The position numbers were made by a program, and so were the translations under genes. Shown here one piece after another: positions 1 to 16,098 of a stretch of 17,557 nucleotides of DNA. The first letter of the stretch is position 1. Every line of letters starts with the position of its first letter. This DNA is from a bacterium (GTDB taxonomy: Bacteria > Arandabacterota > Arandabacteria > Arandabacterales > JALGWA01): the NCBI GenBank assembly GCA_050125095.1, contig JASFEA010000069.1:1-17557 (forward strand). Direction: 5' to 3'. Below the pieces are notes generated by a model. That model worked only from the letters and a program-made list of their open reading frames with translations, was not told where the DNA came from and searched no databases.

Positions 1-522
1 TCACCGGCCGTCTCCCTCATCGGCGACGCGGACGCCGCCGAGCGCGAGCTCGTAGACGGTTTCATGAAGAAATATGCCGAGCGCCGGCTCGTCCCCATAA
101 CCTGGGATGACGTCGCTTCCGCGGTTTATATAGAGCAGTGGACCAACCTTATAGCAGAGCGCGGAGGATGGCTCGAAGGCATGACGCCCGCGTCACTTCC
201 GGATGTAGTCAAGGACCTGAGACCGCTCGCGGCGAGTTACCAGCAGTTTATCGGCCGGCTACCGCCGGGAGAGGCCTTCCAGCAGATCTTGACAATGTCT
301 CTCGGCGCGTCACTTGCGGTGCACCTGGCGAGCCGCGGCTATGAGCTCAACGAGCGCCCGTCGCTGGGGTTCATGATGCATAAGGACGACGAGGAGATCC
401 AGCCGTTCGGAGTCCTCCCCAGACTTGCAATGGGCGAGATCAGCCCGGAGGACTGGGTCAGGCAATGCCAGACGATTGGCATCGCGGACGCAGACCTGGG
501 AAGCGTTCCGCGGACGGGCTAA
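1..522 (+). CDS. 5'-truncated CDS, C-terminal part of a hypothetical protein; tentatively the tail of a long M48-family Zn peptidase
   Basis: Frame 1 is open from base 1 (SPAVSLIGDADAAERELVDGFMKKY...) to TAA at 520-522, so the ATG at 64 is probably internal. The product guess is only recalled resemblance of the 'ITWDDV..AVY..W' and 'GEISPEDWVRQCQTIGIADADL' segments; no HExxH motif lies inside the window. Confidence 0.65.
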   Translation, partial: SPAVSLIGDADAAERELVDGFMKKYAERRLVPITWDDVASAVYIEQWTNLIAERGGWLEGMTPASLPDVVKDLRPLAASYQQFIGRLPPGEAFQQILTMSLGASLAVHLASRGYELNERPSLGFMMHKDDEEIQPFGVLPRLAMGEISPEDWVRQCQTIGIADADLGSVPRTG

Positions 523-1223
523 TACACTCCCGGCAGCAGCTTGTACCTCACCCTTTCAGCATATGCCTCATAGCCGGGGAGCTCGCGCCGGAGGGCCGCG
601 TCCTCGAGCCGTGTCCTTATCACCAGCAGCAACCCCACCAGTCCGGCGGGCACAAGGGCCCACAGCGAGCCCAGCACTATTGATATTGAGGCTTCCATCA
701 GGATAATGCCGGTGTAGCCCGGATGCCTAACGTAACGGTAGGGCCCTGAATCGATGACCGCGTGCCCGCTCCCGGGGCGGATTGCAACCGTGCTAGTGTA
801 GTGTTCATTCGCCCTGATGGCCCAGAGATGAAGGTGGGCGGAGAAGACGTAGACGACGTAAGCCGGCGGGTAAACCCAGAGCGGCAGAGGAGATGTCCAG
901 CCGAATCGCCCGCCGTCAAGAGCGCCGAGCGCAATCACGATGCCGGCAAGCGGGAAGAAGAACGCCATTAAGACCTTGTCCCAGGCTTTGGCGTCGGCGG
1001 CGGGTTTCATGCGCGCCCTTATGGTATCGGCCACGCCCGCCAGCAGCACCGCCACCGCGGTTATAAGGGCGAGATTCACCAGGCCGAAAACCCAGGCCTG
1101 CCAGTAGTCGGCCCGCCCCCCCAGCACGAGCAGGAGCGCCGCCAGAATCACTATCATGGCCGCGCCTCTTATGAAGAGTCTGAGGTTCAACTCAAGCCGC
1201 CCCCCCGCCGTGAGCTGCGCCAC
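519..1223 (-). CDS. Isoprenylcysteine carboxyl methyltransferase (ICMT/Ste14/PEMT-like) family membrane methyltransferase
   Basis: Several hydrophobic helices plus the family motifs 'H.VIDSGPYRYVRHPGY.G' and 'RTRLED..LRRELPGYEAY..RVRYKLLPG'. The start is uncertain: GTG 1223, or in-frame TTG 1190 one base after the upstream stop, or ATG 1157. Confidence 0.9.
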   Translation of the reverse strand: MAQLTAGGRLELNLRLFIRGAAMIVILAALLLVLGGRADYWQAWVFGLVNLALITAVAVLLAGVADTIRARMKPAADAKAWDKVLMAFFFPLAGIVIALGALDGGRFGWTSPLPLWVYPPAYVVYVFSAHLHLWAIRANEHYTSTVAIRPGSGHAVIDSGPYRYVRHPGYTGIILMEASISIVLGSLWALVPAGLVGLLLVIRTRLEDAALRRELPGYEAYAERVRYKLLPGVY

Positions 1224-1950
1224 CCGGCCCGGGTTTCTTCTTTATAAGCCCGAGCCTTATGCCCATTTTGATTATGCCGCGCCCCATGGCGGATATCTTC
1301 CAGGCCTCGGTGGGGTCGTTCCACACGGGGTCCTTCTTCAGCTCGAACCACGCTTTGGCCTCCGGGATGGAGGACACGGCGAAGAGTATGTTGATGATCA
1401 CCACATAGGCCAAGACGTAGGGGTCGCGCGTGCGCCACCAGAGCCACGGAACGAGCAGCCACAGGCCGGCCATGTAGGTGAAATAAATATCGCGCAGCAC
1501 CGCGAACCCGAATATCATCCCGCCGAAGGCCGCGATAAACACGCCTATCCAGTCAATCGCAAACACGCCCCCGTAAATGGATGCGACGCCGCGGCCGCCC
1601 TTGAACCCGTGATACACCGGCCAGATGTGTCCTACAACTCCCGTTGTCGCCGCAATGAGGTAGTAGGGTTCTCCCGGCATGTAGTGCTTGAGGAGAAACG
1701 TGGGGATGAACACCTTGAGCACGTCGCATACGAATGTCAGGAAGCCGTAGCGGGGGCCCACATTGGCCGATACCGACGTGGCGCTCACCGACTTCATGGT
1801 CATGGTCTTGTCGCTTCCGTCGATGCGCAGCACGGTCTCTTCGGGGACGGGTTTGCCCGGCGCGAAGATGGCGGAGACCACTCTGGCGAATGAAATGCTG
1901 CCGATAAGGTAAGCTCCCACGGCGACAACTGCGGCGACTAGGGGATTCAT
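1192..1950 (-). CDS. PlsY-family glycerol-3-phosphate acyltransferase homologue (divergent)
   Basis: N-terminal 'AYLIGSISFA', 'DVLK' and motif 2 'GHIWPVYHGFKGGRGVAS', with a multi-TM profile. Start placed at ATG 1950, which follows an AGGAGG SD and lies just after the upstream TAA (1955-1957), rather than at 1977. Confidence 0.85.
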   Translation of the reverse strand: MNPLVAAVVAVGAYLIGSISFARVVSAIFAPGKPVPEETVLRIDGSDKTMTMKSVSATSVSANVGPRYGFLTFVCDVLKVFIPTFLLKHYMPGEPYYLIAATTGVVGHIWPVYHGFKGGRGVASIYGGVFAIDWIGVFIAAFGGMIFGFAVLRDIYFTYMAGLWLLVPWLWWRTRDPYVLAYVVIINILFAVSSIPEAKAWFELKKDPVWNDPTEAWKISAMGRGIIKMGIRLGLIKKKPGPGGAAHGGGAA

Positions 1951-1954
1951 GACA

Positions 1955-4462
1955 TTAACCTCCTCCTTCATCCACATAGCCAGGGTAAACCCTGCCGGTA
2001 CTGCCGTCTATTGTTATCCGGTCACCGTCGTTTATGATGCGCGTGGCCCTCTCGACGCTGACCACCGCCGGGAGGCCGTACTCCCTCGCCACTATGGCGC
2101 TGTGAGAGAGCTGGCCGCCCGTTTCGGCGACTATTCCGCCTATGTTCGCGAACAGAGGAGTCCAACCGATGTCCATGAAGGGCACGATGAGGATATCCTC
2201 CCGGTTGAGTTTTCCTTGTATGCTTGATGGGTCCCTTACCACCCTGGCGCGGCCGCACACCCTTCCCGCGCTGCCGGGGATGCCGCGGAGGTATTCTAGG
2301 TTCTCGGGGAGGGGGCGTTCGCGGAGGGCGCCCTCCTCGCCGCAGATGATGTCGGGTACGTCCGCCTCCGCGTCCGCCTCCAGCTCAGAGCGCCGCGCGG
2401 CGATTGTCCTCTTCGCATCGCCGGGGGCCAACCTGCCTTCGGCGAGGTCGAGCAGTTCGTCGAAGTTGAGGAAGAAGAGGTCCGTGTGGCCTGCGAGCCG
2501 GCCGTCCTGCCTGAGGGACGATCCCAGCTCCAGGTAGAGCCTCCGCATCTGGTAAGCGTCCTCCGACATGAGGAAGCTTATGCGCTCGCGGAGGTTGAGG
2601 TATGTGATGGTAGAGTCGAGCAGCCTCGAGAACATGACGCGCCGCACGGGTCCCAGATTCCGCTCGACGGCCCGCCTGGCCTCCATGCGTTCGGCCGCAA
2701 CGTCCCTGCGCGCGGCATCTTCAGCGGCACCGCCGGCCATGGCCGCTATGCTCCTCCATATGAAACGCGGGTTCTCTATCCAGGGCGGCAAGGTGAAGTC
2801 GGTGGCGCTTGTGCTGAGGTAGCCGTAGCGCTCCATGAAGGCCTCGAAGCGGTCTAGAACGGCGCGCCCGGCGTCGGTTTGCTCCAGGCGGGCGACTATG
2901 TTCTCGGGCTCTCCCGTCTTCAAGAGGTCCAGAGCTTCGGGGATGCCTGCGGCTATATGGTCGGCGATGTTGCGCATCTCGTCATGGGGCTCGAGCGACT
3001 TGAGACCGGTGTATCCGGCGAGCAGCTTGCCGGGGTCAACGCCCGGAGCGCGCTTGCGAACCAGGCTCGAGAGCATCTTGTTGCGCACGAACATGTTTAT
3101 GGCCGTGATCCACATGTACCATTGCGTCTCCCCGTGGCTGCGCCGTAGGGAGGAGATCTCATCTAGAAGGTCATGAGGAACAACCCCCGACCAGTCGGCC
3201 GACCGGTAGCGCTTAAGCCTCGCCTCGTGCCTCGCCACGAAGGACCGTGCCCGCGCCGCAACGAAGGCGTTCTTGAAGACGAAGGACAGGAGTCCCAGGA
3301 GCCGTCGCATGAGTTGCGGGGACATCCTGGGGCGCTTGTGCACCGCGGCCTCGTCCCTCGCTATCATCTCGAAGAGGTTGACGGGCATCCCCATTTCGCC
3401 GAGCAGCTTCGCGAAGAGCGTGGCGTTGGCGAAGACGCGCGAGCGGATCAGCTTCACGAGGTCGGTGTAGTTTATATCCCGTCGCCCCAGCACCGTGTTG
3501 AATACCGGGCCGAAAACGTTGGTGGTCATGTCGACTATATTAGTCGAAAAGTAAAGCGGCTTGATCGGGCCGGGCGCCATGTCGCGCGCGAGCTTCCGCG
3601 AGTAAACATTCTTGCCGTAGAGCGACGTTATCGGGCGCGTCTGGAGTATCGCGAAACCGTCACCGTCCAGCGCCCACTCTATGTCCTGCGCCAGCGCCCT
3701 TTCGCGACTCACGGCCACCACCGTGTCGGCGAGCTGCTTGAGGCTGTCGCCGTCGAGCACGGGCCGCTCGGGGTCGGAGCAGGTTTTCTCGATAACTTCG
3801 CCGCCATGCTCGATCACGTAGCGGTCGGGGTTCCCGCGGCCGCTTGCGGCGGAATCGCCGAGCCCGCGCACCGCCTCGATTATGATGCGGAAGCGGCCGG
3901 TGTCGGGGTCGGCGCTGAAGGCGATGCCGGCGGCGCGAGGGTTCAGCATAGTCTGGACGAGCACCGCCATACCCGTGTCGTGAATAGGCCCGGGCGACGC
4001 GCGCCCAACGTGGCCGTGAAGGTATTCGATCAGGCGGTCGCTGAAGGCCGACATGTAGCACTTGCGTATGGCCTGCATGAGGGATTCCTCGTCCGTGACA
4101 TTCAGGAAGGTCTCGAGCTGGCCCGAGAAAGAGGCATAAGTGGAATCCTCGCCGACCATGGATGACCTTATGGCGACGGGGCCGCCCAGCGCGCGGAAGA
4201 CTTTCCTTATCTCGCCCTCGATTCGGGCCGGGAACTCGACTTCAAGAAGCGCCTTACGGATCCGGCCGGCCTCCAGCGTGTCCATCGGGGCGCCGACGCC
4301 GTGATTTGCGAGGAGTTCTGCGAGCACACCGGTGGGGATGACGAAACCGGGCGGCACCCTGAATCCCCTTCGGGCAATCCGGGCAAGGCTGGCGGCCTTT
4401 CCGCCGGACAGGGCTTCGCGGAGCGCGCGCCTGTCAGAGAGGTGGAACAGGGGACTACCCAT
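1955..4462 (-). CDS. PEP-utilising dikinase-family phosphotransferase with rifampin-phosphotransferase-like domain order (ATP-grasp, substrate domain, C-terminal phospho-His swivel domain)
   Basis: N-terminal motifs 'GGKAASL', 'VPPGFVI', 'AIRSS..GED...SFSGQLET', 'MAVLVQ', 'QDIEWA' and 'ILQTRPIT'. C-terminal 'ETGGQLSHSAIVAREYGLPAVV' (His codon 2102-2104) and 'IDGSTGRV'. There is no C-terminal pyruvate-binding TIM barrel. Confidence 0.92.
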   Translation of the reverse strand: MGSPLFHLSDRRALREALSGGKAASLARIARRGFRVPPGFVIPTGVLAELLANHGVGAPMDTLEAGRIRKALLEVEFPARIEGEIRKVFRALGGPVAIRSSMVGEDSTYASFSGQLETFLNVTDEESLMQAIRKCYMSAFSDRLIEYLHGHVGRASPGPIHDTGMAVLVQTMLNPRAAGIAFSADPDTGRFRIIIEAVRGLGDSAASGRGNPDRYVIEHGGEVIEKTCSDPERPVLDGDSLKQLADTVVAVSRERALAQDIEWALDGDGFAILQTRPITSLYGKNVYSRKLARDMAPGPIKPLYFSTNIVDMTTNVFGPVFNTVLGRRDINYTDLVKLIRSRVFANATLFAKLLGEMGMPVNLFEMIARDEAAVHKRPRMSPQLMRRLLGLLSFVFKNAFVAARARSFVARHEARLKRYRSADWSGVVPHDLLDEISSLRRSHGETQWYMWITAINMFVRNKMLSSLVRKRAPGVDPGKLLAGYTGLKSLEPHDEMRNIADHIAAGIPEALDLLKTGEPENIVARLEQTDAGRAVLDRFEAFMERYGYLSTSATDFTLPPWIENPRFIWRSIAAMAGGAAEDAARRDVAAERMEARRAVERNLGPVRRVMFSRLLDSTITYLNLRERISFLMSEDAYQMRRLYLELGSSLRQDGRLAGHTDLFFLNFDELLDLAEGRLAPGDAKRTIAARRSELEADAEADVPDIICGEEGALRERPLPENLEYLRGIPGSAGRVCGRARVVRDPSSIQGKLNREDILIVPFMDIGWTPLFANIGGIVAETGGQLSHSAIVAREYGLPAVVSVERATRIINDGDRITIDGSTGRVYPGYVDEGGG

Positions 4463-4472
4463 CCTGGCTCCT

Positions 4473-5387
4473 CTATTTGCGCAATGCCGCCTTGGTCAGC
4501 ATGTGATCCGGGATCTCCACGTCCGGGTCTATGCGCTTGACGATGTACTCGGTTCCCCCGCCCTCGGCGAGCTCGTCCTTGAAGATCATATGCCTGGGGT
4601 ACCAGCCGTCGCCAAGCCTGGACACCTCGGTTATGGTGGTGGTCTTGAGGAGCTTTCCACTCCTGGCGAAGCGCTCTTCCCTCAGGGGAAGCCAGCGCTC
4701 CTTGTCGACCCAGACCTTTCGCGAGTAATAGGCCACGTCCTTAGCTGTCGAGTTGAGTTCCACCACCCAGCAATCCCTGCCGTCCAGCTCCTCGCTGCCG
4801 ACCACGGCGGCTTCGTACTTGTCCAGCAGCCTGTGGTTCTCGGTTATATCTTCATACGAAAGGTCGGAGCCCATGACCGACTGCCTGAGGAGGTGGCCGG
4901 ATATGGCGATGATACGGTCGGTGGGCTCGGGGATGTAGTTCCATATCTTGTCCCCGAGCCGTAGCATTTTCTTGCCCTTCTCGCGCGGCGGCGCGAGGTA
5001 GAGAACGAGGGCGTTGTCCACGCCCTTTCTGTAAACCCGGGACTCTATCGTGCGCGTGCCGCTGCGCCCGTGTACAACCATGTCGGATTCTATCTCGGCC
5101 TGGTCGAAGTACATGTTGCCGTCGATCCGCTCGAGCACCTCCTCGCCCGTGGGGGTATTCCCGCCTACCGTGGTCTCGCCCGGAGCGGTCTCAGCCACGG
5201 TGGTCTCGCCCGCGGCGGTCTCGCCCGGAGCGGTCTCGGCCGAGGCGGGCCCCGCGCCCGGAATCCCGAATACCGCTAACGCCGCCGCGAGCGCAATCAG
5301 TATAGATGAGAGCAGGGCGGCCCGGACATAATGCTTCCCGGGCGCTATCGCAGCCGCAACCGGAAGTCGTCTCATGTCATCAATCAT
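4473..5387 (-). CDS. LolA-like 'outer membrane lipoprotein-sorting' family periplasmic protein
   Basis: Hydrophobic signal/anchor segment, then 'YLAPPREKGKKML', 'MGSDLSYEDI', 'WVDKERWLP' and 'SGKLLK'. ATG 5387 follows an AGGAG SD; ATG 5411, overlapping the upstream stop, is an alternative start. Confidence 0.85.
   Translation of the reverse strand: MIDDMRRLPVAAAIAPGKHYVRAALLSSILIALAAALAVFGIPGAGPASAETAPGETAAGETTVAETAPGETTVGGNTPTGEEVLERIDGNMYFDQAEIESDMVVHGRSGTRTIESRVYRKGVDNALVLYLAPPREKGKKMLRLGDKIWNYIPEPTDRIIAISGHLLRQSVMGSDLSYEDITENHRLLDKYEAAVVGSEELDGRDCWVVELNSTAKDVAYYSRKVWVDKERWLPLREERFARSGKLLKTTTITEVSRLGDGWYPRHMIFKDELAEGGGTEYIVKRIDPDVEIPDHMLTKAALRK
5163..5237 (-). repeat. Five in-frame 15-bp tandem repeats encoding ETAPG-ETAAG-ETTVA-ETAPG-ETTVG
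   Basis: GGTCTC recurs on the + strand every 15 bp, at 5172, 5187, 5202, 5217 and 5232. Confidence 0.9.
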
Positions 5388-5410
5388 ACCATTTGCTCCT
5401 GTTTTCTGCA

Positions 5411-6685
5411 TCAGGCTTCGAGCTCTTTAAACAGCTGGGCGGTCCGGCGTTTGAATATGCCGATTCCGGATATCGCCGTTCCCACAAGGGTTGCAAGGAG
5501 CCCCGGGATGAAACCGATATAGTAAGCCTCGGGCGTAATCTTGGCCCGGATAACGTTGGCCATGAGCACTCCCGAGCTCTTGGTCATGCTGGTCACATCA
5601 AGCCCCACTTCCTGCAGGTAGTAGGAAACACCGAGCCCGACGGCCGTGCCGAGGGCCGAGCCCACGAAGCCTATGAGAAGCGACTCGGACAGCATCGCGA
5701 AGTACACCCTGTCCTTGGATTCGCCTATTGCGAGCCGGACTCCTATTTCCCCGTACCGCCTTATGCCCGACATGAGGCCGGCATTCCACAGCACGATGGA
5801 CATGACCGCGAAGAACACGAGCAGCATGAGCGAAGCGCGGAAGCCGACGATGTCCAGGTATTCGCCGAGGCCGTTCTGCTGGCGCAGCGTTACCATGACC
5901 GGAGTGAAGTCGTCTCCGTCGTCCGAGCGGCTCCCGTTGAAGGCGGCCGCGAGAGTGTCGGCCGCATGCCTGCTGTAAACCATGTTGGGGAAGAAGCCCA
6001 GGATCTCGGACGCGGCACCTTCCATGTCCAGGGCGTACTGTATGTCGGCGATATCGGCTATCATGGTATTGCGATCGAGTGGCCCGATGCCGAAACGTAT
6101 GGTGCCGGCTATAACGAAGTTCTGCGCCGCAAGCGCCCCGTAAGCCGTCGATCCTATGAATGTGGCCGTCTCCCCGGGTCCGACCTCGAGCGTCGCCGCG
6201 AAGTCGTCGCTCACAAGTATCTCGCCCGGGGCCGCGGGCATCCGGCCCCGGTGAATCGCGCCCGCGAGTCCGAGCCTCTCTGGCTCGCGCGACCCCGCGC
6301 CGAGGATGTCGATGGCCATTCCCATTACGGGGCCCTGGGAACGCGTTTCGCCCTGCTCGTCGGGTATGTCCAGGAGGCCGCCGTACTTGATGCGCGCCGT
6401 CCACTCCATGGCCGGGTAGTCGCGCTTGAGCTCTTCCAGGACCGCGGAGAGGTTTCTCACAGCGAGGTCATTTGGTATCTGGCTGGATATCGCACGGTAT
6501 CCGCGCGTCATGACTTTGACATGGCCCGTGTCTATCTTGGCGTTGCTCCGTACTGCCTCATCGATGACGCCGTACATGAAGCAGTACGCGAGCACCGCGA
6601 GCGCGACCCCCAGTGTCACCACGATGATGGGAAACGTGCTCCGGTGCCGGTCTCTGAGGAGGCCTTTCATCAGGAACCTGATCAT
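5411..6685 (-). CDS. ABC transporter permease, FtsX/MacB/LolCE family
   Basis: True start is ATG 6685 (MIRFLMKGLLRDRHRS...) in an ATGA overlap with the upstream gene; the ORF-track extension to 7171 overlaps another CDS. One TM, a large periplasmic domain and three TMs, with 'RRYGEIGVRLAIGE'. Confidence 0.92.
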   Translation of the reverse strand: MIRFLMKGLLRDRHRSTFPIIVVTLGVALAVLAYCFMYGVIDEAVRSNAKIDTGHVKVMTRGYRAISSQIPNDLAVRNLSAVLEELKRDYPAMEWTARIKYGGLLDIPDEQGETRSQGPVMGMAIDILGAGSREPERLGLAGAIHRGRMPAAPGEILVSDDFAATLEVGPGETATFIGSTAYGALAAQNFVIAGTIRFGIGPLDRNTMIADIADIQYALDMEGAASEILGFFPNMVYSRHAADTLAAAFNGSRSDDGDDFTPVMVTLRQQNGLGEYLDIVGFRASLMLLVFFAVMSIVLWNAGLMSGIRRYGEIGVRLAIGESKDRVYFAMLSESLLIGFVGSALGTAVGLGVSYYLQEVGLDVTSMTKSSGVLMANVIRAKITPEAYYIGFIPGLLATLVGTAISGIGIFKRRTAQLFKELEA

Positions 6686-7869
6686 CGGCGTTTCCCCCTG
6701 AGAGCATGCGTCGGGTTGAGCTTGGCTATGCGCGAAGCAGGCAGGCCGCTTACGATAGTCACGCTGATGAGTACCAGTAGCGTGGTGCCCAGAACGAGGC
6801 GGGCTCCGTAAACCGGGTAGAGCACCTGCGGCACGGGCATTCCCATGTCGCTCATCATCTCGGGCACGGCGAATCCCCTGGCTTTGGAAAGGGCGAGAAT
6901 GGGGATGCCGTATGCGGCGCCGACTACGAGCGCGAGCACGCCGTGCATGGCGCCCTCGAGTGTGAAGAGCCAGATTACCCTGGCCCGGTCGAGGCCGAGA
7001 GCGATCAGCGTGCCTATCTCCTTGCGCCTGCGCCATATCGCCAGCACCTGCGTATCGAATATCGCCAGCAGGCCCATGAGCAGCATAATGCTGTATATGA
7101 TATGCGAGCTCGACGACTTCATCTCCACCAGGTCCTCTATGTCCTTTAAGAGATAGTCGAGGTCGTGCCATATCCAGGCGGCGCTGCCCGCCTCAACGGG
7201 CTCGGCGCCCTGCGCCAGCACCACCAGGCTCGCCTGGCCGGAGACCTGGAGCATTTGCTGCAGGTCTTCGATTGGAAGCCACATCTGCCCCCGGTCCATC
7301 CCCGGCACCGAGAGACTGACGACATGCTCTATGCGAACCTCGCCTGCATCGAAGGTGCCGTTGACGTCGCGCCACCTGACGGTCACGTAATCGCCGACAC
7401 GCAGGCCGGTTTCCCTGGCGGTCTGTGCGCCGATCATGGCCGACACCACGTCCGCGTCGTCGTTTACCATCTCCTGCGTCGGAATATTGAGAATGGTCTG
7501 GCCGGGTTCCATTCCATAGAGCACGACGGCCTGCGCCTGGCCGCGGGGATATATGGCGCCGGTGGTTATGAGTATGGGCGTGGCCTCCCTCCGCGATATG
7601 AGCCGGTTGAGCGCTTGGGGAATGGGGGAGTGGCTCTCTTCGAATGTAAGAGGGTCGTAAGGGTCGTAGGTAGCCTGCCAGTACTGGCCGCCGCCCGCTT
7701 CGAAGTCGATCTTGGCGTCGACCATGGCCCTGCTCATGCCGCCCACTATGCCCTGCGCCCAGATGATCATGACGAAGGCGGCCGAGAGCACGAACACGTT
7801 AAGCCATGTTCTGAGGCCGGCGCCCAGGATGTTCCTCAGTGCGAGTTTCGCTAGCAGTCCGAATCTCAT
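6682..7869 (-). CDS. ABC transporter permease, FtsX/MacB/LolCE family
   Basis: 'LALRNIL...RTWL', a periplasmic domain, 'RRRKEIGTLIALG' and the C-terminal 'LPASRIAKLNPTHALR'. ATGA overlaps at both ends. Confidence 0.92.
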   Translation of the reverse strand: MRFGLLAKLALRNILGAGLRTWLNVFVLSAAFVMIIWAQGIVGGMSRAMVDAKIDFEAGGGQYWQATYDPYDPLTFEESHSPIPQALNRLISRREATPILITTGAIYPRGQAQAVVLYGMEPGQTILNIPTQEMVNDDADVVSAMIGAQTARETGLRVGDYVTVRWRDVNGTFDAGEVRIEHVVSLSVPGMDRGQMWLPIEDLQQMLQVSGQASLVVLAQGAEPVEAGSAAWIWHDLDYLLKDIEDLVEMKSSSSHIIYSIMLLMGLLAIFDTQVLAIWRRRKEIGTLIALGLDRARVIWLFTLEGAMHGVLALVVGAAYGIPILALSKARGFAVPEMMSDMGMPVPQVLYPVYGARLVLGTTLLVLISVTIVSGLPASRIAKLNPTHALRGKRR

Positions 7870-8576
7870 TCTTCCGGCTCCGGCGTTTGCTCGACGTCCT
7901 CGACGACGCGGCCGTCCATCAGGGTTATCTTGCGGCGCAGGTACCTTATGACCTTGGAGTCATGCGTCGCGAACACGAACGTGGTCTTGAGGTCGGTGTT
8001 GAGGGCGGCCATGGTCCGGAGAATATTGTGCGAGTTGGCCGCGTCGAGGTTGGCCGTGGGCTCGTCGGCCAGGACTATCTCGGGTTTCTTGACCATGGCC
8101 CTCGCCACGGCGACGCGCTGGCTCTCTCCGCCCGAGAGCTGCGACGGCTTAGACTTCGCTTTGTCTGTGAGCCCTACCCACTCCAGTGCCTCCATCACCA
8201 TCTGTCTGCGGCGGGCTCCGTCGATATCCAGAAGAAGCAGCGGGAACTCGACGTTCTCGTAAACCGTGTAGACCGGGAGGAGGTTATAAGTCTGGAAAAT
8301 GAAACCCAGGTGCTCGCTTCTCAACCGGGCGGCTTCCCTGTGGCTGAGCTGCGATGTGTCCTGCCCCAGCACGATGGCCTTGCCGGCGGTGGGGAAGTCG
8401 AGCGCGCCCACGAGGTTGAGCAGCGTGGTCTTTCCCGAGCCGCTGGGGCCCACGAGCCCCACGAACTCGCCCCTGTCTACACTTAGGTTGACGTCGGCGA
8501 GGGCCGTGAAACTGCCTCCCCCTACCGGGTACCGCTTGACCAGGTCATTGGTCTTGATCAGCGCTCCGTTTTGCAT
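7866..8576 (-). CDS. ABC transporter ATP-binding protein, LolD/MacB type
   Basis: Walker A GPSGSGKTT, Q-loop GFIFQ, signature LSGGESQRV, Walker B/D-loop VLADEPTANLD and H-loop ATHD. GGAGG SD upstream. Confidence 0.96.
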   Translation of the reverse strand: MQNGALIKTNDLVKRYPVGGGSFTALADVNLSVDRGEFVGLVGPSGSGKTTLLNLVGALDFPTAGKAIVLGQDTSQLSHREAARLRSEHLGFIFQTYNLLPVYTVYENVEFPLLLLDIDGARRRQMVMEALEWVGLTDKAKSKPSQLSGGESQRVAVARAMVKKPEIVLADEPTANLDAANSHNILRTMAALNTDLKTTFVFATHDSKVIRYLRRKITLMDGRVVEDVEQTPEPEE

Positions 8577-8662
8577 CGCGCGTCCTCCGCGAATTCTAAT
8601 CGTCTTTTGCCTTCCTATTCCATATTCGGCCGGCGCCCGGGGCGAAAGGTCCGCCGCGCGCC

Positions 8663-9847
8663 CTAGTGGTTGAATATCAGCATTACCTGCCCGCCGTAGC
8701 CTCCGCGCAGTATGAGGGGATTGTAGACCCCACCGGGCTCCTCGGGGCGGTTTTCCGGATAGTAGAACAGGCTCACGTTGAGAGACAGGTATGTCCAGTA
8801 ATGGTCCCAGGCCGCGTACTGCGAAAAGTCCTGGTTGTCCCAGGAGTAGAATGATATGGCCGACAGCCTGTCGACGTACCCGGCCGGGTAAGACAGCGAG
8901 AGCCCGCTCGTGTTGGATGTCTCGCCCGACTCGAAGGCCTGCTCGGACGAGTTCATGACCATATGCTCAAGCAGGGTATGAAGGCCGTTCCCGAGTCCGA
9001 AGGTGTAGTCGACACCGAGCGTGGTCATATTGAGCCACTTGTAGTTGTAAGGAATGGAGTCTGAATTCTTGTATGTCAGTGAAGTCTCGAACCATGCACC
9101 CACCACGACGTCCCACCTGCCGTCCAGCCCCAGCCTGTATTCGGGGAAGTCGGCTACGTAAGGGGCGGGGCCGTCGACGACGCGGTGGTGATAGGTAATG
9201 GCGGCCTCACCGGTGAGGAGCGGGAACTGCGCGCGCCCGCCGTACTCAACCCGGTCTGTAACCGAGGGCCACATCTCGTAGCCCTTGGGTTCGTCGTTTC
9301 CGTAGAGAAGCCAGAGCCAGATGGTGGAGTTCTCCGGGCTTACGTATTTGAATGTCGCTGCGTAGACTCCGTCGGTAAGGCTCTGAGGGTCACGCGGGTC
9401 CAGAACGTCGAACCAGCGGAGGGCTCTGAGAAGATAGGCGGGCCCGAAGTTGATTTGTTGCAGCCCCGCGCGAGTCTCGCTGCTCGCGCTCGCGAAGCGC
9501 AATTTCAAACGGTATAGGTCAACGTAAGCGGTGTCGTCGTCGATGTTGCTTACCCGGGAGGCGAGGGCGTCCAGCGAAGCCTCAAGGTCGAAAAAGGTGT
9601 TGTCGCTTGTCTGCTGGTAGAGCGTGAGCTGAGGTATGTAGCTTGCGCCTGTGCCGATGCCCCACCTGTCCTGATTCTCGACATGGTTCAGCCACGTCGA
9701 GGCCTGGCCCCTGAGTTCATAGGTTAAAGCGGACGCCTGATCATAAGCGAGCCCGAGGCTGGCGAGAATCAACGTCGCAAGGAATGCCGGCAACACTATA
9801 CGCATTTCTCGCCGCGTTTTCCGACGCCTTTTATACAAGCCCGTCAT
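8663..9847 (-). CDS. Hypothetical exported protein, probable outer-membrane beta-barrel
   Basis: Signal-peptide-like N-terminus (alternative start ATG 9805, MRIVLPAFLATLILASLGLA). Aromatic-rich alternating strands, 'RAGLQQINFG', and a terminal strand 'GGQVMLIFNH'. ATG 9847 forms an ATGA overlap with the tetR stop. Confidence 0.75.
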   Translation of the reverse strand: MTGLYKRRRKTRREMRIVLPAFLATLILASLGLAYDQASALTYELRGQASTWLNHVENQDRWGIGTGASYIPQLTLYQQTSDNTFFDLEASLDALASRVSNIDDDTAYVDLYRLKLRFASASSETRAGLQQINFGPAYLLRALRWFDVLDPRDPQSLTDGVYAATFKYVSPENSTIWLWLLYGNDEPKGYEMWPSVTDRVEYGGRAQFPLLTGEAAITYHHRVVDGPAPYVADFPEYRLGLDGRWDVVVGAWFETSLTYKNSDSIPYNYKWLNMTTLGVDYTFGLGNGLHTLLEHMVMNSSEQAFESGETSNTSGLSLSYPAGYVDRLSAISFYSWDNQDFSQYAAWDHYWTYLSLNVSLFYYPENRPEEPGGVYNPLILRGGYGGQVMLIFNH

Positions 9848-10449
9848 ATCTTGTCTCCGCCCTGCTCGCGGGGGAGCAGGCCATAGAAGAAAAGGCCGTT
9901 CAGGTCGCGCGCGAAATCCACGTTGTCGGTATAGGAGTCCCGGAGTTCCTTGTTGTGAGCGAGCTCGCCCATCTTGTCCAGGGCGGCCATGAAGAGCTCC
10001 GGTCGCACCTCCCGCATGTCGCCGCGCTTCTGGGCCCTCTCGGCGAATTCGAGGAAGAGGTGGAAGCTGCGCTCCCTGATCTCGTTCATGAAGGAGAGGA
10101 TCTCGGCGTCGCTGCCGAGGAGCTCCTCGATTAGATCGGGCGACATCTGAGACATGAGCGACATCTTGTATTGAAGTATGAGGTTTAGCTTCTCGGCGAA
10201 CGGCACCGGCATGGCGTCGATTTCATCGACCTTGCTGTAGGCCCGGTCTAGGAGATCGTTCCATGTGAACTTGAACACGTCGAGCTTGTTGGCGAAGTGC
10301 TTGTAGAAGGTCATCTTGCTCGTCTCCGCCTTCCGGCATATCTCTTCGACCGTAACCCTCTTGAATCCGAACCGGTTGAAAAGTCGCGACGCCGCAGCCA
10401 CGATGTCGGCCTTCTTATCCCCCCGGCGGTTTGTATTGCTGCGTGCCAT
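9844..10449 (-). CDS. TetR/AcrR family transcriptional regulator
   Basis: N-terminal HTH 'IVAAASRLFNRFGFKRVTVEEICRKAETSKMTFYKHFANK', 201 aa, GGGAG SD. Confidence 0.95.
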   Translation of the reverse strand: MARSNTNRRGDKKADIVAAASRLFNRFGFKRVTVEEICRKAETSKMTFYKHFANKLDVFKFTWNDLLDRAYSKVDEIDAMPVPFAEKLNLILQYKMSLMSQMSPDLIEELLGSDAEILSFMNEIRERSFHLFLEFAERAQKRGDMREVRPELFMAALDKMGELAHNKELRDSYTDNVDFARDLNGLFFYGLLPREQGGDKI

Positions 10450-10491
10450 GACGGCGTCTCCCGGACTATTCGCCTATACGTTTGGTAGACG

Positions 10492-10512
10492 TATATACTA
10501 TTATCGTATATA
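10492..10512. promoter_or_regulatory. Putative TetR operator 1: TATATAC-N7-GTATATA
   Basis: Perfect 7-bp inverted repeat abutting the -10 element and covering the predicted start site of the tetR operon promoter. Confidence 0.7.
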
Positions 10513-10540
10513 TTCTAACTCATAGTAAACGAATCGTCAA
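10512..10540 (-). promoter_or_regulatory. Sigma70-type promoter of the tetR operon
   Basis: Minus strand: TTGACG (10540-10535), 17 bp, TAGAAT (10517-10512). Confidence 0.75.
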
Positions 10541-10564
10541 CGGTGAATTTACGATATGCACATA

Positions 10565-10585
10565 TATATACCAATATCGTATAAT
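10565..10585. promoter_or_regulatory. Putative TetR operator 2: TATATAC-N7-GTATAAT, overlapping a + strand TATAAT (10580-10585)
   Basis: Near-direct copy of operator 1 (TATATACnantatcGTATA), offset by 73 bp. Confidence 0.6.
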
Positions 10586-10674
10586 ACTATGGTCTACGTA
10601 AGACCAGGCCAGCGTATCAGCCTCCGGATGAAACATGTGGAGACTCGTGAGTCGGGGGGCCTATAATGTAAAGC

Positions 10675-11145
10675 ATGGGAACACTCGGCTCCTTCTGGGG
10701 CGTGGGCGGCATACTCGCGGTAATCGGGTACGCCGTATTCAGGCTCGCCATCCGCGCACGTTATATCAGTACGTATGAACTAGTGTGGTATCACTGGGTA
10801 GTGCTTGTGCTCGGCACCCTGATCCTGGTCTACGTCAAATCTTATAGAGCTTTTCTGCTCAAGCTTGCCCCGAGAATCGCGACCAGGGCCAGAGATATAC
10901 GGGCCGAACCGAAACCTGCAAAAGTCATCTTCGCGCCGTTCTACTGCATGGGGTTCTTCGGGTCGGGCAGGCCGACACAGGTGAGAATAGTCTCCATAAC
11001 CCTGGCCATGGTGGCCCTGATCATAGTGGTCCGCTATCTGCCCGAGCCGTGGCGCGCTATCCTCGATTTCTGTATCGCAGTTGCCCTCGCTCTTGGTTTC
11101 TATTTCATACTTCTGGAGAGCCTTCGACATAAACCTGGGGATTAG
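10675..11145 (+). CDS. Hypothetical small integral membrane protein (about 4 TM)
   Basis: 156-aa ORF with four hydrophobic segments and a 'FAPFYCMGFF' motif, divergent from tetR. TATAAT lies 7 nt upstream of the ATG. Confidence 0.8.
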   Translation: MGTLGSFWGVGGILAVIGYAVFRLAIRARYISTYELVWYHWVVLVLGTLILVYVKSYRAFLLKLAPRIATRARDIRAEPKPAKVIFAPFYCMGFFGSGRPTQVRIVSITLAMVALIIVVRYLPEPWRAILDFCIAVALALGFYFILLESLRHKPGD

Positions 11146-11264
11146 GTCAGGAGTCACGGTCGCGTCCCCGCCGGGAAGAGGTCCTGTTAATGCCCGCCAC
11201 GAGTTTGTACTTGACATTTCATTTTGCAAAATGCTTCGCGCGCTGAACTAAAATCTCCACCTTC

Positions 11265-11294
11265 TTGACACTCGCTTCGGGCACTTGGTATAAT
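11265..11294 (+). promoter_or_regulatory. Consensus sigma70 promoter upstream of 6S RNA
   Basis: TTGACA (11265-11270), 18 bp, TATAAT (11289-11294), with an extended -10 TGn. Confidence 0.8.
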
Positions 11295-11350
11295 GATGTC
11301 AGATGGTGATGTTGACATCTGAAATCCAAAACCGAATAGCATAGATAGGC

Positions 11351-11539
11351 AAAAATCCCTGTCGGTGCACGAGGCTGCTCCAGCTTATTCTGAGCCAACA
11401 GCACTTTAAAGGGAGCTGAAATTCTTAGGCTGATTGAATGCCCGGCTTGCCCGGGAGCATGAGGTCTATGTGACGGCACCCACCTGGATTTATCCGGGAT
11501 TTGGAATAACCTGGGCACACGGCCATGACGGGGATTTTT
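11351..11539 (+). ncRNA. ssrS: 6S RNA
   Basis: About 189 nt whose ends pair (AAAAATCCCTGTC with GACGGGGATTTTT). Internal motifs recalled from 6S RNAs: CTGAGCCAAC, GGGAGC and GACGGCACCCACCTG. Strong promoter upstream, U-rich tail, and no credible ORF. Recognised by eye, not by a covariance model. Confidence 0.8.
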
Positions 11540-11544
11540 CTTTT

Positions 11545-11599
11545 GGGGTCAGGTCTCGGAATGCACAACCCATCGGGGTCAGGTCTCGGAATGCACAAC
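11545..11599 (+). repeat. Two identical 25-bp repeats GGGGTCAGGTCTCGGAATGCACAAC (REP-like dispersed family)
   Basis: Copies at 11545-11569 and 11575-11599. Confidence 0.9.
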
Positions 11600-11601
11600 G
11601 G

Positions 11602-11653
11602 TACCGCAGGGCTGTGCCACAGGGCTCTGCCGCAGGGCCTTGCCGCGGAGGCC
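11602..11653 (+). repeat. Degenerate 13-bp tandem repeat x4 (consensus TGCCGCAGGGCYN)
   Basis: taccgcagggctg / tgccacagggctc / tgccgcagggcct / tgccgcggaggcc. Confidence 0.7.
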
Positions 11654-11733
11654 TGTCGTCGCAGCGTTCACCTGAGCCGAGCCGCGCGCCGCATGTCGCG
11701 TCGAGCTACCGGGCCGGCCCCTTGGCGAGCTGC

Positions 11734-14700
11734 CTATCTCACCAGCAGCATTTTCTTGGTGGCAGTATACTCGGGCGCCGTCATCTTATAGAAGTAGACC
11801 CCGCTGGACACGCTTTCGCCCGCGAAATTCCTGCCGTCCCATCTTGCGGTATAGCGTCCCGGCTCTACAGGCCCGTCGACGAGGGTGGTCACATGCTGGC
11901 CCAGCGTGTTATAAACCCTTATGCTCACCGCGCCCGTCCGCGCTACTTCATACCGTACCTCGCAGGCTCCTGCCGCGGGATTGGGAGCGCTCTGGTGTAG
12001 TGCCCAGCGGAAGGTGCTTCCCGCCGGGATATCACTCGTCCCGCCCGTTCCGCTCCCGCCCGATGCCAGTCCGAAGATATCCTCGAGCACCGTGAGCAGC
12101 AAATCGACCCGCCCTTCGTAACGCCCTGCATCGAAGTCCTCGTATCCGGACGGCGCGTGGCCGTCGCAGTACCCGTATTGGTGATTCACGCTCGCGGAGA
12201 GATCGAAGTCTATGAAGACACTCTGGCCACTGCTCTGGTACTCCGAGTATATGGCCATGTCGGCGTCGGCGACGTCGGGATTGATGACCGACAGAAGGGC
12301 CTGGGTAACGTATCCTCCCGGCGGGGAAGTCTCTGTCTTCACCCAGCTCATGTCTTTAAGATACGGGCAGTCGCGGTAAATTGCCATTGTGTCCAGCCCG
12401 AGCGGAGTGGGTGTCGAGAACACGTTGATAGTCGGCACACCCTCGCAGTATACGTACGGTTTTACGAACGGCGAGTCCATCTCGCTCAAGTAATCGCAGC
12501 CCATGATACCGCTCATGAACTCCCCGCCCAGGGAGTCATAGCCCCCGCCGCCTTCCGACTCTGGCGCGACGTGGTAGGCCGCTCTGTCCCCGCATATCAC
12601 GATTTTACCCCCGGCCGCCAGGTAGTTGCGCATCTCAACCATAGCTTCCTTGTCGAAGAGGTAATTGGAATTATACGGGCCCGTGACCCAGATCACGGCG
12701 TCGTAATCGGTGTTCCAGGTGCAGAGATAGTGTATGTGCTCGTTTGCCCCGGCCCCGGAGATGTCGTAACGGTCGAAGCAGTATCCGGCGTCGGCAAGGG
12801 TGCGGGCGTATATGTCTTTCAGCGGCACCCTGTTCTCGGCCGTCGCGAAGCACTCGGCGTAGTCGAAGGCCGTCCGCGTAAAACCGTCGACCAACAGTAT
12901 CTTCGATTCCGAGAAGCTCTCGGGGTACATGGGGAGAATCGAGAACTCGAAATAGTCCGCGCTCAGCCCGGTGTGGTCGGCATGGCCCGGGTCGGCCTCC
13001 GCCGGGAAATAGGCTTCGTTGCTCGACTGGTCGGTGCACCTGACGTAATACCATGCTTCGGTGCCGGCATCCCACTCGGCCAGCCCGAAGGTGCTCGGGC
13101 AGAGAGTGGCATAATACTGACCGCCCAGGTCGGGCTCCTCGGGGTCCAGCGGCTCGGATTGGGTCATGGCGACGTTTATCCAGGTGGCTCCCTCGTCGAT
13201 CGTTCCGAAAAGCGTCACGGCCTGCACGTAGTCTTTGTCTATTACCTCAACGACGAACTGCTGGTATTTGGGATATGGGTGGGCCTCCCCGGAGTAATAG
13301 TTGAGCGTGTCCTGGTCGTACGCGGCAAAGAAGGAGTTGTAGGCGCAGAGATCTGTGAAGTACATGTCTTGAAGCATGTCTATGCTGCGCGCGTAAAACG
13401 CGGTCGCGCTGCCGTCGAAGTAGCCGACCGAGACGTTGTCGATAAGATGGTCGGTTCTGTAGTGCTTGCCGCCGCAGAAGTCACCGGGCTGGCTTACGTC
13501 CAGGAGATCAAAACCGAACTGCACCGACTCATCCGACGCGCTGTAAAACGCGGTGACATCCTCATTGCGGTCGAAGTCCCAGAAGAAGCAACCGCCATTC
13601 TCAGCGAAGCCGTCGATGTCTATCCACGGGCACCACGTGCCGCTGGGCGTGTCGAAGAAGCGGACCACCGAGTTCGTATAGTCGCAGGTATATTCCAGCG
13701 CGCATATATACTGGTCATACTGAATAACACATCCGGTCTCCTGGATGGGAATGGCGGGCGTTGTGAGCCTGTAAAACCAGCGATTCCTCCATGGCGTTCC
13801 GACCGGATAGCCGCCCTCAGGGCGCCCCCTGTATACTATCGAGCTGTCTATGGTGCACGTGCTTCGGTCGCCTCCGTCGCCTCCCTCATACGGCGGATCC
13901 GGATCCCAGGTCATATGCCACTGGTCGGTGACGCCCTCCGGGTCGGGGAAACTCCAGTAGGAGTCGAGACCACTCTCGAAATCGATCTCATATCTTTCGT
14001 CGTCGCCGTAGACGCCGACGTTGTCAATGAATGCCGCCCCGTCGGTGTCGACATTGCCGTCAGCGTCGCTCCAGGAATTGTCGGATGCGAAGCGCCAGCG
14101 GAAGATCGGCCCCGACGTGTAAGAATACTGCGACGCATCGATGCCGGCCTTGAAGGCCGGGACGCCGGTCTCCGTTCGGGTCTGCCAGTTGCATTGCGTG
14201 AGTCTGTTGGTGTCGGTATTGCCCCAGTGGTCCGGATTGGGGCCCGATCCCCCGCACGGGTCGCCGGGGTTGTTACTCGTTGCGTTGAAGACTCCAAAAG
14301 CCTCCCACTTGGTCCCGTCATAGAGCTCCAAGTAGAGGTAGTCGTACTTGCACTCGGTGTCGTACCTGGGATCGAACAGTAGCGTGCAGCCGTTTGCCAC
14401 GTCGAAGGTCTCCGGAAGCGTGAGCTGCGCGATGCAGTTCCACTGGTCGCCGTATCCCGGGGGTGTCACCCACGCGCCGCATTCGACCGGGCTTCCGTTC
14501 CAGAGGCTGTCGGATCCGCACCAGAGGGCCGAGTCACCGCAGTAGGACCTCTGGTCGGTGCGGTGCGAGCTCACGTGCCAGTAATTCACGTCGACCTGAG
14601 ACGGAAGCGCGCGCACGTCGTGATGCTTGAAACACTTAATATCCCACGGGGCGTATGTCCCGCAGGAGTCGCCCCAGGGCCAGTCGCTCTCGAAGCACCA

Positions 14701-14982: not shown

Positions 14983-15037
14983 CTTTGCCCCCTCGTCAAT
15001 TGATGTATCACGCCGTTCCATGAACCGCAGCATTGTA

Positions 15038-15066
15038 ATTATACCATAGAATACCGGTGGGGTCAG
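15038..15066 (-). promoter_or_regulatory. Putative sigma70 promoter of the large secreted-protein gene
   Basis: Minus strand: CTGACC (15066-15061), 17 bp, TATAAT (15043-15038), with an extended -10 TGn. Confidence 0.6.
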
Positions 15067-15112
15067 GTCTGAAAATGCACAGTGGTTGGGGCCAGGTCTG
15101 AAAATGCACAGT
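15059..15112 (+). repeat. Two 25-bp repeats GGGGYCAGGTCTGAAAATGCACAGT (same family as 11545-11599)
   Basis: Copies at 15059-15083 and 15088-15112, with one mismatch between them. Confidence 0.9.
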
Positions 15113-15130
15113 CGCGTATCCTTACGCGAC
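15111..15130 (-). terminator. 8-bp hairpin GTCGCGTA-TCCT-TACGCGAC, possible terminator of the 15177-15947 gene
   Basis: Perfect inverted repeat 46 bp past the stop codon. The adjacent U-tract is weak. Confidence 0.4.
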
Positions 15131-15176
15131 CATGAAGGGTTTCACACTGTTCCGGAGGGGGAACGACGAGAGTTGA

Positions 15177-15947: not shown

Positions 15948-16098
15948 TTTTACCTTCCTCTGAGTCTGGCGAGGGAGCCCGGGGCCCGCTCCTTGTTCCA
16001 GTGGGAGCGCCTTCGCGTGGGGCTTAGTGCGAGCCCCGAGCTGTTACTGCTAGTGTCAGTAAGGAGGCTTACGTGACCCATCGTCACCCTGTACATAA

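Follow-up and report, generated by a model that had tools for sequence, protein, structure and literature searches.

A rifampin phosphotransferase-like dikinase and a divergent PlsY paralogue form a conserved gene pair, with a possible role in making and exporting an acylated product

To our knowledge, the only functions described for dikinases of the rifampin phosphotransferase (RPH) type are those of antibiotic kinase, pigment ligase and phenol kinase. PlsY, the membrane acyltransferase that carries an acyl group from acyl-phosphate to glycerol-3-phosphate, is presented, in the available portion of its description, as having one function and an "invariable" pocket for glycerol-3-phosphate (PMC5700162). 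Homologues of both proteins are encoded side by side in the window studied here, a stretch of 17,557 nucleotides (contig JASFEA010000069.1 of assembly GCA_050125095.1, positions 1 to 17,557) from a bacterium of the Arandabacterota lineage. The two genes make up one conserved functional unit. The simplest reading of the residues kept and lost in the PlsY-like protein is that it would still take an acyl-phosphate-like donor but use a different acceptor.

The pair lies on the minus strand, the dikinase gene upstream:

1955-4462, minus strand: small-molecule dikinase of RPH architecture, 835 amino acids (Pfam PPDK_N and PEP-utilizers)
1951-1965, minus strand: translational-coupling junction, read directly from the sequence, with the ribosome-binding site GGAGGAGG, TAA, a 4-nt spacer and ATG
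1192-1950, minus strand: divergent integral membrane acyltransferase paralogue of the PlsY family, 252 amino acids (PF02660, 71.9 bits)

The junction reads GAA GGA GGA GGT TAA tgtc ATG, four bases separating the dikinase stop codon (1957-1955) from the PlsY-like ATG at 1950. GGAGGAGG has the appearance of a Shine-Dalgarno sequence that lies within the last dikinase codons and would serve the PlsY-like gene, and the two genes are predicted to be translationally coupled. A previous sequence-only reading of this DNA had given the coordinates of the pair (1192-4462), the RPH domain order and the 4-bp gap to the PlsY-like start, all of which held on the minus strand.

Scanning one genome per species gave 80 loci, 74 with members of the PlsY-like subfamily (L005-L078) and six with distant canonical PlsY. 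Seventy of these 74 loci have a dikinase homologue; the six canonical loci have none. The homologue lies on the same strand within 300 bp of the PlsY-like gene in 57 loci (upstream in 44, downstream in 13), adjacent on the opposite strand in two, and at a distance of 380-4322 bp, frequently across an intervening gene, in 11. Four loci are free of a dikinase: L040 and L078, which are cut by contig ends, and L045 and L062, which are genuine. By record titles, the pair occurs in Krumholzibacteriia, Calditrichota, Vicinamibacterales, Aminicenantes, Zixiibacteriota, Cloacimonadaceae, WOR-3, Anaerolineae and other Chloroflexota, and Actinomycetes; the PlsY-like loci span at least eight phylum-level lineages. 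In all five further genomes searched, the top dikinase match (265-675 bits) adjoins the PlsY-like gene, other paralogues scoring at most 113 bits. A class sample of 151 related genomes, whose counts are descriptive and carry no statistical test, holds the PlsY-like gene in nine; all nine have a dikinase of at least 719 bits, in eight cases no more than about 1.5 kb from the PlsY-like gene on one contig. Neither gene is present in 140 genomes of the sample, and unlinked RPH-type paralogues score 599 bits or less. Pairwise distances of the dikinase and PlsY-like proteins correlate (r = 0.60), none of 2000 permutations giving as high a value. Chance adjacency was rejected on the linkage counts (70/74 loci; 9/9 class-sample genomes), and the coupling of the dikinase to the PlsY-like gene, central to the sequence-only reading, is borne out. 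The PlsY-dikinase fusions that it mentioned for cyanobacteria did not turn up: no fusion was found among the best 150 matches of an exhaustive profile search, or in a word-indexed search of proteins of 442-2000 amino acids at E <= 1e-5, the latter being weak evidence.

In several Anaerolineae loci the PlsY-like gene occurs twice, the two copies lying in tandem or on either side of the dikinase (L016, 6785-8497; L032, 869-4873; L055, 1467-5385; also L049, L052 and L056). The subfamily has been duplicated within the module.

Pfam recognises PPDK_N (E 1.4e-53, best stretch 18-229) and PEP-utilizers (E 8.1e-23, residues 754-823) in the dikinase, with no further family and no match to a phosphoenolpyruvate (PEP)/pyruvate-binding barrel, in agreement with the sequence-only reading. 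An ATP-grasp domain (about 1-283) is followed by a central substrate-binding domain (about 284-750) and a C-terminal phospho-His swivel (754-823). The His motif, GGQLSH at 782-787 (His787), has Leu at the position of the regulatory Thr of PEP synthase (PPS) and pyruvate phosphate dikinase (PPDK), again as first read. The central region, about 470 amino acids long, had been taken to be motif-free, a description that had to be abandoned: NCBIfam model NF004877 aligns to residues 233-825, spanning the region, and the top Foldseek match of an AlphaFold (AF2) model of the dikinase (predicted local distance difference test score, pLDDT, 86.3; predicted template-modelling score, pTM, 0.84) is full-length Listeria RPH (RPH-Lm), over about 900 alignment columns with E 1e-40. 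Because the model matches the full-length protein, the central region is predicted to be the substrate-binding domain of the RPH family and not an unknown insert.

RPH-Lm is also the closest solved relative by phmmer (E 4e-62). Its essential residues Lys22, Arg666-Glu667 and His825, as named in the available text of PMC4844700, align to K22, R625-E626 and H787 of the dikinase. Across 35 PlsY-linked homologues, K22, R99, E262, R625 and H787 never vary, and the family consensus retains E626; Lys670 of RPH is replaced by Ser629. The phmmer alignment to RPH covers residues 10-283 and 497-825 only. Residues 284-496, corresponding to the rifampin (RIF)-contact region of RPH, are unaligned, and the RIF-binding residues (Gln336/337, Tyr351, Val368, Phe479 and others) lie there. 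Judged by these residues, the protein looks like an active RPH-type small-molecule dikinase with the full RPH catalytic set.

All subfamily models in NCBIfam score the dikinase far under their cut-offs: 357 against 945 bits for PRK06241.1-3 (the "PEP synthase" subfamily), 303 against 1300 for PigC and 328 against 1350 for RedH (models NF052631 and NF052632), and 311 against 999 for RPH, whose equivalog models NF041857 and NF000283 give 310.7 against 999 and 227.6 against 1700. The window holds no prodiginine or other pigment biosynthesis genes. The PEP synthase model TIGR01418 scores 206.9 against 739.75, and the position of the His domain (754-823 of 835, C-terminal rather than central) and the lack of a TIM barrel set the protein outside both PEP synthase and PPDK. 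A role as the organism's PEP synthase was rejected because the genome encodes a canonical PEP synthase elsewhere, in addition to PtsI and PPDK. A complex prediction for dikinase residues 284-835 with the PlsY-like protein scored 0.00; it gives no verdict and was used neither for nor against an interaction.

The PlsY-like protein belongs to PF02660 (71.9 bits, cut-off 24.1) and scores 60 bits on the PlsY equivalog TIGR00023, whose cut-off is 137.2. Its AF2 model (pLDDT 80.3) shows the seven-helix PlsY fold. Foldseek places aaPlsY at ranks 1 to 5 (E 5.8e-8 to 2e-6; template-modelling (TM) score 0.75-0.77 by target), the top match being 5xj5 (E 5.8e-8, TM 0.76 by target), and hhalign relates the protein to canonical PlsY with 99.9% probability. 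In a tree built by a quick method (LG+G4), 35 PlsY-like sequences split from 14 canonical PlsY sequences with 100% SH-aLRT support, and the protein is best regarded as a separate paralogue of canonical PlsY. It differs further in a beta-hairpin insertion, about 10 residues longer, in place of the GSGNxGATN loop, in a basic amphipathic C-terminal extension (…SAMGRGIIKM…), and in the subfamily-specific residues Arg23 (invariant) and Glu197 (near-invariant).

According to the available part of PMC5700162, acyl-phosphate is bound in aaPlsY through His92, through the backbone of Lys104-Ala107 at a Gly-rich turn and, by hydrogen bonds to its acyl carbonyl, through Ala40-Thr41; Gly102/103/105 shape the phosphate hole at Lys104-Ala107. 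Glycerol-3-phosphate is held by Ser35, Arg45, Lys104 and Asn180, plus Ser142 and His177, and Asn37 stabilises the intermediate. In the N180D mutant over 95% of the activity is lost and the Km for glycerol-3-phosphate rises 22-fold (Table 2 of the same source). These residues were mapped by HMMER alignment to 5xj5 and by hhalign profile-profile alignment, and counted over 35 sequences. The equivalents of His92, Gly102, Gly103 and Gly105 are each kept in 35/35, that of Ala40 in 33/35, and that of Thr41, as Thr or Ser, in 31/35. On the glycerol-3-phosphate side, the Arg45 position is basic in 0/35, and Asn37, His177 and Asn180 are likewise found in 0/35, the Asn180 position being Glu or Asp in 32/35. 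The Lys104 equivalent is Arg in 26/35 and Lys in none; under the hhalign mapping alone, 23/35 sequences have Ser or Thr at the Ser35 position. The PlsY-like protein would thus appear to keep the acyl-phosphate site and to have lost the glycerol-3-phosphate pocket. Because the donor residues are kept and the glycerol-3-phosphate residues are gone, a different acceptor is suggested, and because an acidic residue replaces Asn180, this acceptor is probably neutral or cationic.

The lipid genes of the host genome bear on whether the pair could be an alternative route to lysophosphatidic acid, with a fatty-acid kinase and a glycerol-3-phosphate acyltransferase isozyme replacing PlsX/FakAB-PlsY. PF02660 membership, the PlsY fold and the kept acyl-phosphate site fit such a role, and neither FakA (Dak2 family) nor FakB (DegV family) was found in this 91%-complete genome, so that no known fatty-acid kinase competes with the dikinase as a maker of acyl-phosphate, which also counts for the acyl-phosphate proposal set out below. 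However, a canonical PlsY (176.8 bits) is encoded on another contig, between der and gpsA, and all five other genomes with a PlsY-like gene that were checked also carry canonical PlsY (127-192 bits; 6/6 with this genome). PlsX is present too, split over two contig ends (C10:41252-41779 and C25:26707-26940, profile positions 1-176 and 245-322); the split reflects a break in the assembly and does not mean that the gene is broken. With Arg45, His177 and Asn180 absent from 35/35 sequences, an acidic residue at the Asn180 position in 32/35, a TIGR00023 score of 60 against 137, and the module in only 1/18 and 9/151 genomes of two lineages, we regard this route as very improbable. The PlsX/FakA-independent supply of phospholipid precursors proposed in the sequence-only reading is not supported, on the same grounds (canonical PlsY and PlsX in the genome, the lost pocket, a rare and patchy module), to which is added an operon shared with a TetR gene and a Lol/MacB-type exporter.

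This operon is a minus-strand run of nine closely spaced genes (519-10449), transcribed in the order TetR, 394-amino-acid protein, ATP-binding cassette (ABC) ATPase, FtsX permease 2, FtsX permease 1, LolA_like protein, dikinase, PlsY-like protein and ICMT/PEMT methyltransferase. Neighbours were counted by tblastn over the 74 loci with 7-kb flanks, many loci being too short to show more. Around the pair, the features are:

10540-10512, minus strand: promoter-like, sigma-70-like site 5' of the TetR gene (10/12 match; a consensus match only)
9844-10449, minus strand: TetR-family regulator, heading the nine-gene run (Pfam TetR_N, 48.4 bits)
8663-9847, minus strand: putative outer-membrane porin-like protein, 394 amino acids, without a Pfam family (homologue in 10/74 loci)
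7866-8576, minus strand: ABC ATPase of LolD/MacB type (Pfam ABC_tran, 119 bits; homologue in 35/74 loci)
6682-7869, minus strand: FtsX-type ABC permease 2 (Pfam FtsX; homologue in 17/74 loci)
5411-6685, minus strand: FtsX-type ABC permease 1 (Pfam FtsX; homologue in 18/74 loci)
4473-5411, minus strand: periplasmic LolA_like protein (PF17131, 172.9 bits) with an N-terminal signal or anchor (homologue in 19/74 loci)
519-1223, minus strand: ICMT/PEMT-family membrane methyltransferase (Pfam ICMT 47.7 bits, PEMT 33.2 bits; homologues in 11/74 loci)

The ATG of permease 1, read from the sequence, overlaps the stop codon of permease 2 upstream (ATGA). The start of the methyltransferase is uncertain, being either a GTG at 1223, which overlaps the 3' end of the PlsY-like gene, or an ATG at 1157. 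The matches on adjacent, overlapping genes (ABC_tran at 119 bits, FtsX at 54 and 50 bits, LolA_like at 172.9 bits) place the system among FtsX-family (LolCDE/MacB-type) ABC exporters with a periplasmic LolA-fold partner, and export is predicted. ABC/FtsX genes lie within 7 kb of the pair in 36/74 loci. In Anaerolineae the gene order is PlsY-like gene, dikinase, ABC gene, fused MacB_PCD/FtsX permease and HlyD. No TetR homologue was seen in the 74 loci, an uninformative result in that the 7-kb flanks mostly stop short of the expected place.

The nearest ESM Atlas clusters of the 394-amino-acid protein are labelled "Porin family protein" (score 0.99), which serves as a lead only. Among the best 150 profile matches, the only long PlsY-like forms, P0149 (622 amino acids) and P0163 (381 amino acids), are joined to a porin-like protein. 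P0149 consists of a PlsY-like domain, a signal-peptide-like hydrophobic segment and a homologue of the porin-like protein (40% identity, E 2e-70). Both may be true fusions with an internal cleavable signal, or products of gene-calling read-through. Because P0149 joins the two, the PlsY-like and porin-like genes are directly adjacent in another lineage.

Taken together, the data lead us to propose, tentatively, that the dikinase makes an acyl-phosphate, that the PlsY-like protein uses it to acylate something other than glycerol-3-phosphate, and that the product is exported; we consider this possible rather than established. The catalytic residues of RPH being conserved in the dikinase, the ATP-grasp domain would pyrophosphorylate swivel residue His787, and water would remove the gamma-phosphate, giving AMP and Pi. 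The swivel would then bring the phosphate to the central domain, where Arg625-Glu626 would position its transfer to the carboxylate group of some hydrophobic acid (in the simplest case, a free fatty acid), yielding acyl-phosphate. Mobile phospho-His and acyl-phosphate are interconverted by succinyl-CoA synthetase and by ADP-forming acyl-CoA synthetases. In the membrane, the PlsY-like protein would bind the acyl-phosphate in its kept phosphate hole and acylate an acceptor that carries no phosphate, and in some lineages an ICMT-like methyltransferase or an alpha/beta hydrolase would modify the product further. The ABC/FtsX pump would extract the product from the inner membrane and pass it, by way of the LolA-like protein, to the porin-like outer-membrane protein. 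The sequence-only reading had offered the dikinase product as either a donor or a phosphorylated acceptor for the PlsY-like protein. The kept acyl-phosphate residues are in keeping with the former; the latter is weakened by loss of the phosphate clamp, though the new invariant Arg23 leaves some room for it.

Several observations weigh against this proposal. No member of the PEP-utilizer/RPH dikinase family is described as phosphorylating a carboxylate in the available portions of PMC12167813 and PMC13534948; the acceptors reported there are of hydroxyl, phenolic, enol and amide/amine type (RPH, HpeHI, PpsAB, CreHI and HapC/PigC), and across these two sources and the accessible text of PMC7500099 the groups that characterised RPH-type members phosphorylate are of hydroxyl, phenol, enol or nitrogen type. 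The substrate of the dikinase is not readable from its sequence, the pocket region 284-496 being the part that phmmer leaves unaligned with RPH. The genome also encodes PlsX, which could provide acyl-phosphate with no need of the dikinase. L045 and L062 have full flanks yet no dikinase, and in 2/151 genomes of the class sample a high-scoring dikinase occurs where the PlsY-like gene was not found. The mapping of His177 and Asn180 is alignment-dependent, though MAFFT and hhalign agree on it. The cluster in the window is without a fatty-acid-binding or fatty-acid-releasing gene, and chelatase-like, HupE/UreJ plus DUF6512 and PucC-type neighbours at other loci (see below) point beyond plain fatty acids.

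The acceptors on record suggest a different chemistry, in which the dikinase would phosphorylate a non-carboxylate oxygen (enol, hydroxyl or phenol) of a hydrophobic molecule and the PlsY-like protein would hold the phosphate as leaving group while a second substrate displaces it, in an alkyl or aryl transfer or a condensation. HapC and PigC, about equally distant from the dikinase (303-328 bits), phosphorylate MBC to MBC-P and then condense it (available text of PMC13534948); every characterised family member in the accessible part of PMC12167813 uses a non-carboxylate acceptor; and no other part of the PlsY-like protein is as well conserved as the phosphate hole. On the other hand, the Ala40-Thr41 equivalents are kept (33/35 and 31/35), suggesting that a carbonyl still lies beside the phosphate, and neither the available part of PMC5700162 nor a literature search yielded a report of PlsY chemistry with a donor other than acyl-phosphate. 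We consider this displacement chemistry unlikely.

A second tally of neighbours, by clustering of 75 loci with the window included, gave the following; coordinates vary between loci and counts are listed instead:

16/75 loci: membrane-anchored ferrochelatase/CbiX-like protein
14/75 loci: cytoplasmic GxSxG hydrolase (PGAP1/LCAT/lipase-like)
14/75 loci: HlyD adaptor
7-8/75 loci: DUF6512 and HupE/UreJ
5/75 loci: PucC-type transporter of the major facilitator superfamily (MFS)
5/75 loci: FAD monooxygenase-like protein
3 loci: chlorophyllase/PETase-like hydrolase

The pair and a pump of the FtsX family make up the common denominator across loci, with accessory enzymes that vary by lineage. The chelatase-like protein (about 410 amino acids, with three N-terminal transmembrane helices, HGEP and GHGQP motifs and Pfam scores of 30-42 bits) shares an operon with the pair in Anaerolineae and Actinomycetes (L041, 5530-6774; L044, 3285-4520; L065, 5453-6712; and 13 further loci).

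Such neighbours could mean that the activated carboxylate is a tetrapyrrole propionate or a metallophore acid, which the PlsY-like protein would esterify or amidate for the pump to move. The chelatase-like gene in 16/75 operons speaks for this, as do the HupE/UreJ and DUF6512 genes, the PucC-family MFS genes and the chlorophyllase/PETase-like genes. So does, as a lead, the similarly built PG1175-81 cluster of Porphyromonas gingivalis, which in the available parts of PMC10434189 and PMC13096392 responds strongly to a shortage of iron or haem: its expression rises 13- to 136-fold when iron is limiting and is also raised in a hemH mutant. That cluster, however, uses an MMPL pump and was likened to the window by gene make-up, not by homology. 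None of the metal-linked genes occurs in the window or in the closest diderm-type loci, the chelatase Pfam scores are low, and neither cobalamin nor other riboswitches were found in the window and 18 loci (19 sources), in which only two tRNAs and one 6S RNA matched. A tetrapyrrole or metallophore substrate thus seems decidedly unlikely.

The distribution of the module is narrow within lineages. In the phylum of the window the PlsY-like gene is present in 1/18 genomes, and it was found in neither of the two genomes of the same genus (83% and 93% complete). A dikinase match at E <= 1e-30 occurs in 2/18, the second being an unlinked fragment. This fragment (L090; G002:C83, 3-929) was considered as a second copy of the module and rejected: it lies at a contig start, with unrelated genes next to it and no PlsY-like gene. 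It has a GGSLSH motif and 38% identity, and is followed by a PIN-like small open reading frame (ORF) and a TypA/BipA-like GTPase; unlinked RPH-type paralogues do exist in this phylum. A tiny contig of a 57%-complete relative (G011:C300:44-760) encodes a LolA_like homologue with 69% identity. The PlsY-like profile and the dikinase query gave no subfamily-level match in that genome, and the cluster may be present there in fragments. Beyond the phylum, the exhaustive profile search returned 169 PlsY-like representatives at E <= 1e-30 (clusters at 50% identity), and a tblastn search of 72,556 plasmid records with the PlsY-like protein was negative. We read the module as an accessory trait, patchy and horizontally spread, and not as housekeeping lipid synthesis.

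A patchy, accessory distribution is also what a detoxification or resistance island might show, the dikinase inactivating a hydrophobic xenobiotic or antibiotic, the TetR protein sensing it and the MacB/Lol-type pump expelling it, while the PlsY-like protein would use PlsX-made acyl-phosphate in a separate step of membrane repair or conjugation. RPH is the closest solved relative of the dikinase, a TetR gene heads the operon, an ABC/FtsX pump lies inside it, and PlsX is present in the genome. Yet the dikinase reaches only 311 bits against the RPH cut-off of 999, its RIF-binding region does not align, the plasmid search was negative, and the island gives no reason why a PlsY paralogue should be coupled in translation to the kinase and retained along with it in 70/74 loci across phyla. 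We judge a resistance island improbable.

Genes and RNAs elsewhere in the window are as follows:

11353-11538, plus strand: 6S/SsrS RNA (75.5 bits, gathering score 46.4, full model covered), between the TetR-headed operon and a large gene for a 1099-amino-acid protein
11734-15033, minus strand: this 1099-amino-acid protein, with Pfam matches only at the C-terminus (FlgD_ig, 30 bits; Por_Secre_tail and CHU_C just under cut-off), probably type IX secretion cargo, the remainder without a family
15177-15947, minus strand: ORF of 256 amino acids without a Pfam family, unrelated to the cluster
16300-17145, plus strand: carbon-nitrogen hydrolase (PF00795, 170 bits), unrelated to the cluster

If the acyl-phosphate proposal holds, this would be a third biological source of acyl-phosphate, an RPH-family swivelling-His carboxylate kinase feeding a PlsY-derived acyltransferase with a new acceptor and, together with a Lol/MacB-like pump, building and exporting an undescribed envelope lipid in many uncultured anaerobic phyla; in this full form the idea is more doubtful. 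The dikinase and the PlsY-like protein each fall within a known superfamily; it is the chemistry and pathway predicted for them that would be new. The database names of the PlsY-like proteins are automatic "PlsY" labels, and a search of the literature, supplements lying outside it and papers being represented in part, returned no paper linking a PlsY homologue with a PEP-utilizer/RPH-type dikinase (two papers held both terms, in unrelated contexts). The PlsY-like clade predicts new chemistry in both families, in the making or use of acyl-phosphate and in the acyl acceptor. It also offers a two-gene handle on the envelope lipids of Calditrichota, Aminicenantes, Zixibacteria, Anaerolineae and their relatives, whose lipid biochemistry is almost unknown.

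Set beside described systems, the cluster as a whole resembles P. gingivalis PG1175-PG1181, compared by description only, in its make-up of TetR, porin, LolA_like and transporter genes; the transporter there is of the MMPL type, and no dikinase or PlsY-like gene is reported in the available parts of PMC10434189 and PMC13096392. The ABC ATPase, two FtsX permeases and periplasmic LolA_like protein recall LolCDE-LolA and MacAB-type systems but, unlike LolCDE-LolA, the window is without LolB and gives no indication of a lipoprotein substrate. With the prodiginine-condensing enzymes PigC, HapC and RedH the dikinase shares its architecture and comparable NCBIfam scores (303-328 bits), and PigC/HapC illustrate, in the accessible text of PMC13534948, that phosphorylation by members of this family can activate a substrate for a subsequent group transfer. 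The scores are nevertheless far under 1300-1350, there are no prodiginine genes nearby, and here a separate membrane enzyme would do the transfer. RPH (NF041857; 5FBS, 5HV1) has the same three-domain order and equivalent catalytic residues; it differs in score (311 against 999 bits), in Lys670 (Ser629 here) and in the RIF-binding region, which phmmer cannot align over 284-496, and pairing with a membrane acyltransferase homologue is not described for it in the available portion of PMC4844700. Were the acyl-phosphate proposal right, the dikinase would deliver acyl-phosphate to a PlsY-fold enzyme after the logic of FakAB-PlsY, as outlined in the available parts of PMC10146087 and PMC9136124. FakA/FakB and PlsX, the known acyl-phosphate sources of PlsY, are of unrelated families, and the stoichiometry of the dikinase would be ATP to AMP plus Pi. 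PlsY itself (PF02660, TIGR00023; 5XJ5-5XJ9) shares its fold and acyl-phosphate site with the PlsY-like protein. The latter nonetheless forms a separate clade, with a beta-hairpin for the GSGNxGATN loop, the glycerol-3-phosphate residues lost and a C-terminal extension; it is an extra copy beside canonical PlsY in 6/6 genomes, and its context is a dikinase and a pump, whereas that of canonical PlsY is der/gpsA/plsX.

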